64,000 bases of DNA. Origin: Sediminibacterium sp. Its GTDB lineage: Bacteria; Bacteroidota; Bacteroidia; Chitinophagales; Chitinophagaceae. Positions 727 through 4,114 of this stretch are shown in pieces. The stretch spans positions 3,047 through 67,046 of the forward strand of contig JBMOFB010000001.1 of NCBI GenBank assembly GCA_049314475.1, written 5' to 3'. The notes under the pieces were generated by a model. It had not been told where the DNA came from. It ran no database searches and was given only the letters and a program-made list of their open reading frames with translations. Each line of letters starts with the position of its first letter. Position 1 is the stretch's first letter. A program made the position numbers and the translations under genes.

Positions 727-1755
727 ATGGACCCAGTTATCTATACATACCATCAACCTTTTACCCTTGAATCCGGTATCAGTTTGCCAAAGCTCAAAAT
801 AGCCTACCATTATTACGGGGAATATACACCAGGTAAAAAAGTAGCCTGGGTATGTCATGCGCTTACGGCGAATTCCGATGTGGCTGATTGGTGGAAGGGA
901 TTGGTAGGCGAAGGATCCATGATTAATCCAAACGATTACTTCATAGTTTGTGCGAATATCATTGGTTCATGTTATGGATCTACAGGGCCATTGAGTGTGG
1001 CTGATTTGGACACTAGTTTTGATGAATTTCCATTAATCACCATTCGGGATATGGTGCGTGCACATATTTTATTGAGACAACATTTAGGAATTGAAAAAAT
1101 TGATCTTTTATTAGGAGGAAGCATGGGTGGATATCAAGCGCTAGAGTGGGCTATCATGGAACCTTCTGTGATTCAAAAAATGTTTTTGATTGCCACAACC
1201 GCTGCTGAAAGTGCTTGGGCGGTTGCAATACATACGGCCCAAAGATTATCTATAGAAGCAGATAATACATGGAAGGAAGCCAAGCCAAATGCAGGTGCAA
1301 AAGGATTGAAAGCGGCAAGGGCAATAGGGATGTTGACTTATCGTAACTATGACATCTTCAAAGAAAAACAAACCGAACCAGATGCGGAAAAAGTAGATGA
1401 GTTAAAAGCCTCTTCTTATATCAATTATCAGGGAGATAAATTAGTAAATCGATTTAACGCTTACAGTTATTGGTTACTCACAAAGTCCATGGATAGTCAT
1501 CACCTTGCGCGAGGTCGTGGGGGCGACTTAGCGGTTACTTTGGCATCTATACAAACACCAACTTTAATCATTGGAATCAATAGTGATATTTTATGTCCAT
1601 TGGCAGAGCAAGCATTCATGGAGGCCCATATGCCCAACGCAACCTTAGTGGCAATTGATTCAATGTATGGGCATGATGGATTCATTATTGAAACTGAACA
1701 AATTATAACTCATTTAAAAGCTTGGCTTACCAAAGTAGCTATGACTATTAAATAA
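727..1755 (+). CDS. metX: Homoserine O-acetyl/succinyltransferase (MetX family)
   Basis: CHALT, GSCYGSTGP, GGSMGG nucleophile elbow, GHDGF. Confidence 0.95.
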   Translation: MDPVIYTYHQPFTLESGISLPKLKIAYHYYGEYTPGKKVAWVCHALTANSDVADWWKGLVGEGSMINPNDYFIVCANIIGSCYGSTGPLSVADLDTSFDEFPLITIRDMVRAHILLRQHLGIEKIDLLLGGSMGGYQALEWAIMEPSVIQKMFLIATTAAESAWAVAIHTAQRLSIEADNTWKEAKPNAGAKGLKAARAIGMLTYRNYDIFKEKQTEPDAEKVDELKASSYINYQGDKLVNRFNAYSYWLLTKSMDSHHLARGRGGDLAVTLASIQTPTLIIGINSDILCPLAEQAFMEAHMPNATLVAIDSMYGHDGFIIETEQIITHLKAWLTKVAMTIK

Positions 1756-1987
1756 AAAATTGAATTAATAGGAGTAACATGGTTATACCTGTCATTATAT
1801 AAATTAATTTCCTATTTTTTTCTAATTTAAATACTACAATAGCCATACTTATGAACGCCATTATAGACAATATAATACCTGTTTTTATATTGAACCAAGG
1901 CAAGGATTGATATAAAAAACTTTGAGAAAAAATAGAAAATAGTATAAGTAAAAGGATTGATGCTTTATTTTTTGTTATCATATTCAT
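1748..1987 (-). CDS. Small integral membrane protein (about 3 TM segments), candidate immunity protein
   Basis: 79 aa, three hydrophobic stretches; ATG overlaps the stop of the upstream lipoprotein (TAATG). Confidence 0.65.
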   Translation of the reverse strand: MNMITKNKASILLLILFSIFSQSFLYQSLPWFNIKTGIILSIMAFISMAIVVFKLEKNRKLIYIMTGITMLLLLIQFFI

Positions 1988-2634
1988 TAATCATTACAGT
2001 CTTCAAAATCTAATTGACAACCTACTCTCATTGCTTGTAAATGTTCTATAGCAAGACCACCACATGCTAATTGAAAAAATACTCCACCAACTCCTCCAGT
2101 CAAAGCGCCTATTCCAATTGCAGTAGCTGTGCAGCCTAAGATTTCAGATGTGTACACAATATTACTTAATCTGTAGCAATTATTATATTTTTGTGCACAT
2201 CTATTTCCTAGTAATAGCGATTGTTTATTTGAAGTAGTAGTATTTTTATAATTTATTTCGTTAAGTAAATTCTGAATTTCATTTTGAGAGTAATTCTCTA
2301 GAAAAGAGTATTTCTTTCTAATAGCATTAGCTAATATTGATTGATTTTTAAAAAATAGATTATACTCAGCAAGTGATTTAAATCCTAATTGGTTGATTAG
2401 TTGTACTTGCTCAATATTATTTAATTTAGGCTTTTTTAAAAGTTGAATACTTGCGTTGGAAGGGCTTTCCATATTATTTATAAAATTGGCATTATAGCTA
2501 ATGAGTTCTTGTACCATTTTATCAGTTTTAAATTCTTGAATACTAGTCACTAGTTTTATTTCTGAATTTTCTTGTTTTTGACATGACATTAGTACTAGAG
2601 ATAACGCTAAAATTTGGAATAATTGATTTTTCAT
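1987..2634 (-). CDS. Lipoprotein with C-terminal 6-Cys, Gly-rich bacteriocin-like domain
   Basis: Start moved to ATG 2634; signal MKNQLFQILALSLVLMS-C; C-terminus C-x6-C-x14-C-x22-C-x14-C-x6-C. Confidence 0.8.
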   Translation of the reverse strand: MKNQLFQILALSLVLMSCQKQENSEIKLVTSIQEFKTDKMVQELISYNANFINNMESPSNASIQLLKKPKLNNIEQVQLINQLGFKSLAEYNLFFKNQSILANAIRKKYSFLENYSQNEIQNLLNEINYKNTTTSNKQSLLLGNRCAQKYNNCYRLSNIVYTSEILGCTATAIGIGALTGGVGGVFFQLACGGLAIEHLQAMRVGCQLDFEDCND

Positions 2635-2793
2635 TTTATTTAATTTTGATTTACATAAAAATATAATCAAACAAAATACAGATTTCGAGTATTTATACTT
2701 GAAATGTATTCAATAAAATAGCCTAAAAAGGGTATAAAATATTACCTCATAGTATTAGCAAAATAGCTAATTTTACAACAAATAAATTTGACT

Positions 2794-2970
2794 ATGGGAA
2801 TTTTAAGACAATTTGGAGAGTACTTATTCATTAAAAAAAGAGATCCAAATCAACCTAGAACACAATGGATGAAATACATGCATGGCATGAATCGTATTTC
2901 ATTATTGGTATTTATTTTTGCAATTCTTTTTACTTTATTCAGGGTATTTATCCTACCACTTTTTAAATAA
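2794..2970 (+). CDS. Conserved small Bacteroidota membrane protein (resembles DUF6728)
   Basis: YLF.KKRDPN...MKYMHGMNRIS followed by a TM helix; ATG at 2794. Confidence 0.7.
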   Translation: MGILRQFGEYLFIKKRDPNQPRTQWMKYMHGMNRISLLVFIFAILFTLFRVFILPLFK

Positions 2971-2998
2971 AGTGACTCGCAATAAAGCCAAACAATAT

Positions 2999-4114
2999 TT
3001 ATTTTTTATTCAGTGTTTCTTGAATAATGTTTGCTGCAACCTCTGTGGCCTTGTGTCCAGTAGTCAATGCTTGTTTTAGCGCTGTATAATCTGCTTTGAT
3101 TGCAGACTGTCTCGTAGGGTCTTCTAATAATTTTTTTAATTCGATGGATAAATTACTAGTAGTTAAATCTTCTTGAATTAATTCCTTCACCACTTCCTTG
3201 TCCATAATTAAATTCACCAATGCGATAAATTTAATTTTGATAAATCGTTTTGCTAAAGCTAAAGTAATCGGGTTGCCTTTGTAACAAACAATTTCTGGTA
3301 CATTTAACAATGCAGTTTCTAATGTTGCGGTACCACTTGTAACTAATGCAGCTTTACTATGTTGCAAAATGGCGTAGGTATTCGCAGCCACTACATGAAC
3401 ATTTGGCAAATCTGGTAGTAGTGTATTGAACCAAGTACTATCTATACCAGGTGCTTGTGCGACAACAAAATGTTCATTAGGAAATTGCTTCGCAACAGTA
3501 AGCATGATGGGTAATTTTTGTTGAATCTCTTGCTGACGACTACCAGGTAATAACGCAATCAATGCTTGTCCTTGTAATTGAGCAATGGGATGTGCTAATG
3601 GTTCAAGTGCATCCAACACTTCCATTAATGGATGTCCAATATAATCGACCTCCCAGTCCCATCTATCTTTAAAGTATTGTTTTTCAAAAGGGAGGATGCA
3701 CAATAAACGATCAATCGATAAGCGCATGGCAGGAACCCTGTTTTCTTTCCATGCCCAAACTTGTGGTGCAATAAAATACACCACTTTTAATCCTTTTTCT
3801 TTCGCCCATTTTGCTATACGCAAATTAAAGCCAGGATAGTCAATACAAATTAAAACGTCTGGTTCAAATTCGGCGATATCTTTTTTGCAAAATGCGATAT
3901 TGGATAAGATGGTCCTTAAATTCATTAGTACTTCCACAAAGCCCATGAAAGCTAGACTGCGATAATGTTTCACAAGATGTCCTCCGGCCGCTTGCATCAA
4001 ATCTCCTCCCCAACATTGTATACTTGCAGCAGGGTCATTTTTTAAAATGGCTTTGATTAAATTGGATCCGTGTAAGTCGCCGCTAGCTTCGCCAGCTATG
4101 ATATAATATTTCAT
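2999..4114 (-). CDS. lpxB: Lipid-A-disaccharide synthase
   Basis: AGEASGDLHG, IDYPGFN, LLPGSR, SGTATLE motifs. Confidence 0.97.
   Translation of the reverse strand: MKYYIIAGEASGDLHGSNLIKAILKNDPAASIQCWGGDLMQAAGGHLVKHYRSLAFMGFVEVLMNLRTILSNIAFCKKDIAEFEPDVLICIDYPGFNLRIAKWAKEKGLKVVYFIAPQVWAWKENRVPAMRLSIDRLLCILPFEKQYFKDRWDWEVDYIGHPLMEVLDALEPLAHPIAQLQGQALIALLPGSRQQEIQQKLPIMLTVAKQFPNEHFVVAQAPGIDSTWFNTLLPDLPNVHVVAANTYAILQHSKAALVTSGTATLETALLNVPEIVCYKGNPITLALAKRFIKIKFIALVNLIMDKEVVKELIQEDLTTSNLSIELKKLLEDPTRQSAIKADYTALKQALTTGHKATEVAANIIQETLNKK

Follow-up and report, generated by a model that had tools for sequence, protein, structure and literature searches.

A 64,000-nucleotide (nt) stretch of a Sediminibacterium sp. 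genome (GenBank assembly GCA_049314475.1, contig JBMOFB010000001.1, positions 3,047 to 67,046), called the window below, carries two small adjacent genes beside a metX-like homoserine O-acetyltransferase gene. Gene 1 encodes a 215-residue lipoprotein (P0001) that ends in a six-cysteine helical hairpin, and gene 2 encodes a small transmembrane (TM) protein (P0002). From sequence comparison we propose that this locus may be a self-contained two-gene module, made up of a membrane-active lipoprotein toxin and its immunity protein, which represents an unnamed family of the Bacteroidota. We regard this proposal as an even call, while the structural description of the hairpin lipoprotein is held with high confidence. 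The toxin-immunity interpretation is supported by the obligate linkage of the two genes, by the accessory, multi-type distribution of the family, and by the retention of orphan copies of gene 2 in genomes that have lost gene 1.

Structure of the Six-Cysteine Hairpin

The cysteines of the gene 1 hairpin are found at positions 146, 153, 168, 191, 206 and 213, with codons spanning 1996-2199, and their spacing is exactly C-x6-C-x14-C-x22-C-x14-C-x6-C. This mirror symmetry of 6/14/22/14/6 had been read in the first-pass annotation of the window, which was made from the letters alone and suggested a bacteriocin with an immunity protein. It proved to be a property of the homologues as well. A family profile search of 1.84 billion representatives (E<=1e-3) gave 121 sequence clusters at 50% identity. 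Since the pattern C-x6-C-x14-C-x(9-25)-C-x14-C-x6-C is kept in 102 of these 121 clusters (the rest are mostly fragments), and since no columns other than the six hairpin cysteines are invariant in 76 diverse members, the symmetry is not a product of chance.

The structure predicted by AlphaFold2 (AF2) on a diverse alignment is all-helical, with a mean predicted local distance difference test score (pLDDT) of 87.5 and a predicted template modelling score (pTM) of 0.80. Helices at residues 142-179 and 183-214 form the helical hairpin that had been suggested at first, and the tip between them is modelled with less confidence, about 65. A run on close homologues only gave a pLDDT of 48 and was superseded by the diverse-alignment run. 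The base of the hairpin is polar and clamped by cysteines (C146/C153 with C206/C213), the next rung is C168-C191, and the tip is a hydrophobic glycine zipper. The central 22 residues (169-190) are uncharged and contain G176-x3-G180-x3-G184 (GxxxGxxxG). The cysteine spacings i, i+7 and i+22 place three cysteines on the same helical face. The sequences and the model together strongly support the prediction of an antiparallel helical hairpin in the C-terminal 74 residues, with the nested disulfides 146-213, 153-206 and 168-191 stapling its arms.

The evolution of the cysteines is consistent with this pairing. In full-length family clusters a core cysteine is always lost together with its mirror partner (2-5 in three clusters, 3-4 in two and 1-6 in one), and no loss of a single core cysteine was found among them. 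Loss by mirror pairs only supports the nested 1-6, 2-5 and 3-4 disulfides that had been proposed. Covariation between the arms, calculated as mutual information with average product correction for 106 hairpins, points in the same direction: the 15 best cross-arm pairs, with E164-H198 among them, have a mean depth offset of 3.7, compared with 7.1 for the background. Additional cysteines tend to come in pairs too. Sixteen clusters gain an outer mirror pair, consisting of a Cys 2 or 4 residues before C1 and a Cys 4 residues after C6, and two clusters gain a mirror inner pair. Unpaired extra cysteines occur in a few clusters, and the mirror rule for extra cysteines is therefore strong but not absolute.

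Throughout the family the arms are fixed in length and are connected by a Gly/Ala-rich loop of 9-25 residues. The outer rungs are polar (hydropathy -1.6 and -1.4), arm 1 being basic and arm 2 acidic, while the loop is hydrophobic (mean hydropathy +1.47, G 24%, A 18%) and the sequence around the tip is uncharged over a median length of 32 residues. The hydrophobic loop is a family-wide trait and the glycine zipper a subfamily trait. The zipper centre described in the first-pass annotation is thus present in gene 1, as G176, G180 and G184, but is not general. Variability of the tip had also been anticipated. It is found only between family types; in the close relatives of gene 1 the six cysteines and nearly the whole hairpin are invariant.

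A subfamily with a 12-residue loop (for example P0114, P0119 and P0134) has a different hydrophobic tip, with a consensus like A-A-D-L-T-I-V-x-G-I, and a His-His pair that flanks C3 and C4 and covaries. These proteins often carry the extra outer Cys pair, which gives eight cysteines in perfect mirror symmetry. Another subfamily has a CxxC within a 25-residue loop. The His-His pair and the CxxC could be metal or redox sites.

The hairpin protein could not be assigned to any known family. No meaningful match in Pfam, NCBIfam, PADLOC or PHROGs was obtained for P0001, P0002, the hairpin by itself or the longer forms, and none in Pfam or NCBIfam for the 76 diverse family members. The PDB sequence search returned nothing below E 0.59. 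No known fold was recovered in fold searches, where the best Foldseek match against the PDB had E 0.38 and the best VIA-align wide match had Z 5.8; a search of the ESM Atlas returned only the family of gene 1 itself. ClyA, MakA and AhlB appeared among the non-significant Foldseek rows and are not counted as evidence, and a match of one family member to BSAP5b (E 0.0024) is taken as noise. The hairpin family was not found described in literature searches.

Lipoprotein Signal and N-Terminal Domain

The N-terminus of gene 1 is MKNQLFQILALSLVLMS-C18. The lipobox L-M-S-C18 and the following QKQENSE, both noted at first reading, are present, and the lipobox conforms to the signal peptidase II rule [LVI][ASTVIM][GAS]C. 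Cys18 does not vary among 23 members of the clade. In 85 of the 121 family clusters a script detected a lipobox-like Cys behind a hydrophobic stretch, a few of these being false and located in fragments. Most family members are lipoproteins of 200-245 residues, often with Lys and acidic residues behind the lipidated Cys. The signal peptide and lipobox suggest that the gene 1 protein follows the standard pathway of export by Sec, lipidation at Cys18 and anchoring in the envelope. An in-frame TTG would extend gene 1 to 227 residues; all homologues, 67 close ones of 211-216 residues included, instead begin MKNQLF.

The lipoprotein export signal of the Bacteroidota consists of K-(D/E)2 or Q-A-(D/E)2 at positions +3 to +5 after the lipidated Cys (PMC5080379). 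The gene 1 sequence is C-Q-K-Q-E-N, with one acidic residue at +4/+5, and is a partial match to K-(D/E)2, while the C-Q-K-E-E-N of the clade homologues matches in full. The surface-export signal originally attributed to gene 1 is therefore complete in these clade homologues and only partial in the window copy.

The N-terminal domain is predicted with confidence, with block-mean pLDDT of about 85-97 up to residue 120 and 89 for residues 121-130. Profile matches cover it in most family members, and G84 is nearly invariant. Matches of this domain to AnfG_VnfG and RRP36 were under the cut-offs of those families and were treated as noise. The domain is joined to the hairpin by a coil of about 9 residues with a pLDDT of about 60.

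This linker is important for the question of whether the hairpin acts as part of the lipoprotein or as a free peptide. In the first-pass annotation the hairpin was thought to be released from a pro-domain; gene 1 would then encode a pro-peptide-type bacteriocin, cut after the linker Arg and freed as a peptide of about 70 residues. The low confidence of the short linker between the two domains would agree with this, and the general toxin-immunity evidence applies to it equally. Plant alpha-hairpinins provide a precedent as free, disulfide-stapled hairpin peptides (PMC7191063). However, the residues ahead of C1 vary across the family (DNR, PDDL, SDY, VNS and others), and without conserved residues at this point a shared cleavage site is not indicated. 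In addition, conservation of the N-terminal domain goes together with that of the hairpin throughout the family, both parts belong to a single compact and confident fold in the AF2 model (pTM 0.80), and no protease or exporter is linked to the genes in any neighbourhood examined. Release of the hairpin is thus not supported and appears improbable.

Gene 2 and the Downstream Membrane Proteins

The gene 2 protein has three hydrophobic segments, at about residues 9, 34 and 59, in agreement with the three or so TM helices first counted, and a KLEKNRK loop between the second and third. Its homologues form 112 clusters, most of them of 77-78 residues. The more likely start is the second ATG (1979-1981), used in the homologues and by most gene callers, which gives a protein of 77 residues. 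With this start, the TAATG overlap by which translational coupling to gene 1 had been proposed may be a 5-nt gap instead, which is still a tight linkage. The "long" gene 2 calls of 85-86 residues (P0302 and P0303) do not represent a separate form; they are over-extended open reading frames (ORFs) that run through the gene 1 end.

The association of the hairpin with a small membrane protein is not limited to the window. A small same-strand ORF lies directly downstream in every hairpin-bearing member inspected with readable downstream sequence, more than 30 in all. These include six hairpin-bearing loci in genomes of the phylum (L015, L016 and L018-L021), five metagenome contigs readable past gene 1, and 20 of 20 further members of other types within the genus (one cut by the contig end). 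A small TM gene downstream of the homologues, as the first-pass annotation expected, is thus coupled to the hairpin gene throughout the family. The partner ORFs encode proteins of about 54-104 residues with 2-4 hydrophobic segments and are mostly 2-26 nt away, sometimes overlapping gene 1. A weaker relative with a different Cys pattern (L017) has no partner ORF, and a downstream TM gene is also missing at two loci where the tip is polar and the Cys ladder degenerate (L023 and L024).

The partners share the architecture TM-TM-basic loop-TM and very little sequence. Only weak similarity between types was seen in an all-against-all phmmer comparison, and the downstream proteins could therefore not be shown to be one homologous family. 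The predicted complex of the hairpin with the gene 2 protein had a score of 0.00, which counts neither for nor against binding.

The neighbourhoods of the family are otherwise unrelated, and some of them hold a transposase, an integrase fragment or an Abi-like gene. At one locus (L019 in genome G342; 403-1206 and 105-335) a six-TM protein resembles, by sequence motifs only, a CPBP/Abi-type intramembrane protease; proteases of this type are often linked to bacteriocin immunity. The same locus is also beside a tyrosine-recombinase fragment.

A lipoprotein paired with a small multi-TM protein resembles the format of spanin/holin or superinfection-exclusion pairs. The two genes might then be a phage-related or defence cassette, in which the TM protein is holin-like or an exclusion factor and the lipoprotein is spanin-like or masks a receptor. 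Two family loci, one next to an Abi-like gene and one next to an integrase fragment, would fit this explanation, as would the weak, non-significant match of gene 2 to a PHROG holin (E 0.22). However, neither the window locus nor most other loci contain an endolysin or other phage genes, PADLOC gave nothing and PHROGs nothing significant (E 0.17 and 0.22), and gene 2 does not have the charged C-terminal tail typical of holins. The cassette is also stable between housekeeping genes across species. A phage or defence origin seems very improbable to us.

Distribution of the Family

A word-based search returned only close relatives from metagenomes, 64-98% identical and 211-216 residues long, and the few named ones are labelled Chitinophagaceae or Bacteroidetes. 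One close homologue (P0035, 70% identity) is labelled as a Burkholderiaceae metagenome-assembled genome (MAG). All other named sources are Bacteroidota, and this label is therefore probably a binning error rather than a cross-phylum transfer. Three of the 25 congeners first sampled have the close type, while it is absent from 16 other families of the order.

The family as a whole is wider and patchy. The family profile detects a member in 12 of 401 genomes of the phylum. Within the genus, full-length matches occur in 26 of 281 genomes at E<=1e-30, and in about 45 at E<=1e-10. These members are located at various loci, and some genomes carry two or three copies.

The window genome has a second, very distant module on contig C141 (L071; 525-1475 and 183-518, both on the minus strand). 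The N-terminal part of its 316-residue lipoprotein weakly matches the family profile (E 2.6e-4), and its last 80 or so residues are a Gly-zipper region clamped by cysteines, C-x3-CC-x5-C ... C-x6-C, with the C-x-L-x-Y-x-x-C end motif shared with the hairpin family. A 111-residue multi-TM protein is encoded 6 nt downstream. Proteins of about 300 residues like this lipoprotein are present in many congeners, for example G488.

The metX Locus and the Orphan Copies of Gene 2

It is important to compare the window locus with the corresponding locus in other genomes of the genus. The gene pair is present at the same place by metX in two of them, G005 and G012. The closest relatives, G004 and G016, have no cassette, and in these genomes metX is followed by the DUF6728 gene within about 30-40 nt. 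This is the patchy presence at the metX locus that had been predicted. Between G012 and G005 the flanking genes are about 95% identical, gene 1 is 85.5% identical and gene 2 is 80.5% identical. Between the window genome and G005/G012 the values are 74-78% for the flanking genes, 69% for gene 1 and 61-62% for gene 2. The occurrence of the cassette at the same locus in distant congeners, where it has diverged in step with its flanks but faster than they have, suggests that the insert is old at this place and not a fresh transfer. Judging from these sequences, the cassette at the metX locus is old and has been repeatedly lost.

Some of the losses removed gene 1 and left gene 2. One MAG (L035 and L036) has a deletion of about 750 bp, which begins shortly behind the DUF6728 start and extends to codon C206 of gene 1; the final ~10 codons of gene 1 remain, and gene 2 is intact. 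The junction is shared by three GTDB species genomes (G505, G507 and G539), in which gene 2 is likewise intact. In genome G067 the junction is different: the gene 1 coding sequence is removed and gene 2, which is cut by the contig end, lies directly behind a retained upstream element. This 15-nt element, TTCAAGTATAAATAC, is located on the minus strand of the window at 2689-2703, about 55-70 nt upstream of gene 1, and is kept in the window genome, G005, G012 and the G067 locus. It is a candidate promoter or operator; a perfect Bacteroidota TAnnTTTG promoter box was not found upstream of gene 1.

The pairwise dS (synonymous divergence) of the orphan gene 2 copies is 0.32-0.69, and their dN/dS (ratio of nonsynonymous to synonymous divergence) is 0.13-0.34, which is indistinguishable from the 0.13-0.31 of the paired copies. 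These values indicate that orphan gene 2 is under purifying selection after the loss of gene 1. No intact hairpin gene was seen elsewhere in the orphan genomes, and no case of gene 1 without gene 2 was found among the loci examined. The putative toxin and immunity logic of the first annotation is strengthened by this retention. Several traits of a toxin-immunity pair are found here together: a small TM gene downstream of every hairpin gene inspected with readable sequence, a patchy multi-type distribution, and orphan copies of the putative immunity gene with no orphan toxin gene seen.

The same observations bear on a different explanation, in which the pair is a non-toxic envelope module. The stapled hairpin would be a second membrane anchor or an oligomerisation element, in the manner of SlyB, gene 2 would be its inner-membrane docking or assembly partner, and the function would be a dispensable one such as stress protection or tethering. 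Such a complex would agree equally well with the presence of a lipobox, with the Gly-rich hydrophobic segment and with the strict pairing of the lipoprotein to a membrane protein. The near invariance of the hairpin in the clade, under strong purifying selection, and the absence of any evident delivery machinery or receptor domain also favour it. However, an obligate partner should decay after the loss of gene 1, and the orphan gene 2 copies are intact, with the dN/dS of 0.13-0.34 maintained over a dS of 0.3-0.7. A sporadic, multi-type, multi-locus and multi-copy spread, with mobile elements among some of the neighbours, is unusual for structural parts of the envelope. Neither P0001 nor the hairpin alone matches the Pfam glycine-zipper families (PF13488, PF13441 and PF05433), even at E<=10, and none of the 76 family members matches them at E<=0.01; a 298-residue distant relative (L072, G488) has a sub-threshold Gly-zipper_Omp match with E 0.066. 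We consider the envelope module rather unlikely.

Comparison with Known Systems

The pore-forming colicins are among the systems closest to the toxin-immunity module proposed here. Colicin immunity proteins have three TM segments in the E1/Ia type and four in the A type. Like the window locus with its putative immunity gene, pore-forming colicins combine a hydrophobic helical hairpin in a larger helical protein with a small TM immunity protein encoded adjacent to it, and the immunity proteins of pore-formers act in the cytoplasmic membrane (PMC9558359). However, gene 1 has no sequence or fold match to the pore domain in Pfam, PDB, Foldseek or the VIA-align top rows, although a missing fold match does not exclude similarity. 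Gene 1 encodes a 215-residue lipoprotein with no recognisable receptor or translocation domains and with no evident lysis gene or SOS control, and the colicins do not have the three disulfides of its hairpin.

In the Cdz system of Caulobacter, the surface-held CdzC and CdzD, which contain GxxxGxxxG, kill on contact, and a small TM protein, CdzI, encoded in the same operon, provides immunity (PMC5380434). The combination of a hydrophobic GxxxGxxxG toxin with a gene for a small TM protein is similar to that of genes 1 and 2. The Cdz toxins differ in being peptides of about 85 residues that have a dedicated type I export and form aggregates. Gene 1 would use Sec and the lipoprotein signal peptidase with no transporter nearby, its protein has a conserved helical N-terminal domain and a six-Cys ladder, and the zipper is found in a part of its family only.

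The architecture of the hairpin has counterparts in other proteins. Plant alpha-hairpinins are antimicrobial helical hairpins with nested disulfides (PMC7191063, PMC11591084), and these proteins and the twin-CX9C CHCH domains share with gene 1 the antiparallel helical hairpin with nested disulfides between mirror-placed cysteines. The alpha-hairpinins, however, are short soluble plant peptides with four cysteines (CX3C...CX3C), whereas the gene 1 domain has six to eight cysteines at 6/14 spacing and a membrane-like hydrophobic tip, and is bacterial and lipid-anchored. The likeness is one of design, with no homology detected.

Lipoproteins as antibacterial toxins are known from the SitA/SitI system of myxobacteria and from the BSAPs of the Bacteroidales, which are displayed on or transferred by the outer membrane, are polymorphic and have a cognate protective gene (PMC8546572; PMC12853789). 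SitA differs from gene 1 in its enzymatic C-terminal domains and its need for outer-membrane exchange, and the BSAPs differ in being MACPF proteins to which resistance comes by receptor variants. Neither has the gene 1 hairpin, and no family member matches them convincingly. Glycine-zipper lipoproteins (Gly-zipper_Omp, Gly-zipper_YMGG, Rick_17kDa_Anti and SlyB) resemble gene 1 in combining an N-terminal lipid anchor with a Gly-rich hydrophobic hairpin, but lack both the Cys ladder and an obligate TM gene downstream, and occur as housekeeping families, not in a patchy manner. The module would work most like the colicins or Cdz and is built like a larger, membrane-seeking version of the plant alpha-hairpin; it is a member of none of these groups.

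Proposed Mechanism

In the proposed mechanism the gene 1 protein would pass through Sec, receive its lipid at Cys18 and be held in the envelope, from where it may reach the cell surface or outer-membrane vesicles by means of the lipoprotein export signal. The greasy tip of the hairpin could then insert into the bilayer of a competing cell, or into the inner membrane of the producer in transit, and damage it. Such damage might come about, for example, when hairpins oligomerise through the GxxxGxxxG face. By analogy with CdzI and the immunity proteins of pore-forming colicins, the gene 2 protein would neutralise the hairpin inside the membrane by direct contact.

Several points weigh against a toxin. 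The clade hairpin is almost invariant while gene 2 drifts, and nothing at the tip points to an arms race. A domain for receptor binding or translocation, by which a lipid-anchored protein might get to the inner membrane of a rival, is not recognisable. The export signal of the window copy, QKQEN, appears weakened and falls short of the tested minimum K-(D/E)2. The orphan copies of gene 2, which are short genes, trace to only two deletion events, and the similarity of the G507 orphan copy to the paired G012 copy suggests recombination, which would blur the time of retention. Purifying selection on orphan gene 2 would fit a function of gene 2 itself as well. Glycine-zipper lipoproteins such as SlyB are not known to be toxins.

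Organization of the Locus

The features of the locus are listed in Table 1. Genes 1 and 2 are on the minus strand and convergent to metX, while the DUF6728 gene is divergent from them, with lpxB beyond. The ORF map agrees with the reading frames, coordinates and overlaps of the first-pass annotation, including the 8 nt (1748-1755) shared by the convergent ends of metX and gene 2. The insert is AT-richer, as had been seen by eye: the GC content is 0.22-0.27 across ~1650-3000, compared with 0.37-0.42 in both flanks. The cassette is surrounded by metX, the DUF6728 gene, lpxB, surE and an OsmC-like gene. As was also first noted, nothing near it in the window encodes a transporter or a modification enzyme.

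Table 1. Coordinates of the two-gene cassette and its flanking features in the window
Feature	Position	Strand	Basis
metX-like homoserine O-acetyltransferase, flank	727..1755	+	ORF; Pfam Abhydrolase_1 on syntenic genes
Gene 2 (P0002), proposed immunity protein, three TM helices	1748..1987	-	ORF, 79 residues from first ATG
Gene 1 (P0001), 215-residue lipoprotein	1987..2634 (stop codon included)	-	ORF and translation
Signal peptide with lipobox LMSC, lipidated Cys18	2581..2634	-	Sequence reading
N-terminal all-helical domain, residues 19-132	2239..2580	-	AF2 helices, profile coverage
Linker, residues 133-141, ending N-R ahead of C146	2212..2238	-	AF2 coil
Six-cysteine alpha-hairpin, residues 142-215	1990..2211	-	Cys spacing, AF2
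Divergent intergenic region, gene 1 to DUF6728 gene	2635..2793	none	Candidate promoter region (inferred)
58-residue DUF6728 small membrane protein, other edge of insert	2794..2970	+	ORF; PF20498 on syntenic genes

The metX-like gene of the window genome has a different and slightly longer C-terminus (KVAMTIK) than that of the cassette-free relatives, and its last codons (1740-1755) run into the cassette, overlapping the end of gene 2. The DUF6728 protein has a single TM segment and is encoded beside lpxB in all congeners examined; it is 98% identical in the closest, cassette-free genomes. A perfect TAAATTTG box is located directly upstream of the DUF6728 ATG.

Biological Significance

The module may be the first example of a new class of Gram-negative antibacterial weapon, a proposal that we make tentatively and hold to be slightly on the doubtful side. 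The weapon would be a Sec-exported, lipid-anchored alpha-hairpin with a triple-disulfide ladder, whose Gly/Ala tip enters the membranes of rivals and which is delivered from the surface or in vesicles without a dedicated secretion system. It would exist in many types, each with a three-helix immunity protein, in freshwater Chitinophagaceae-like bacteria, a lineage taken only from the source names given for close homologues, and in other Bacteroidota, with orphan immunity genes serving as a defence of non-producing strains. If this is true, an unannotated family of at least 121 clusters would be a new antibacterial weapon that needs only the general lipoprotein pathway, present in roughly one in six genomes of the genus and in about 3% of the sampled Bacteroidota. 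Little is known about antagonism between environmental, uncultured bacteria.

The small all-helical hairpin, with three predictable disulfides and a variable loop, offers a scaffold for studying how a membrane-inserting tip is first hidden and then deployed. Even if it is not toxic, the pair would still define a new envelope module with an unusual disulfide architecture. A single genus, in which some genomes have the pair, others the putative immunity gene alone and others neither, provides a natural experiment.

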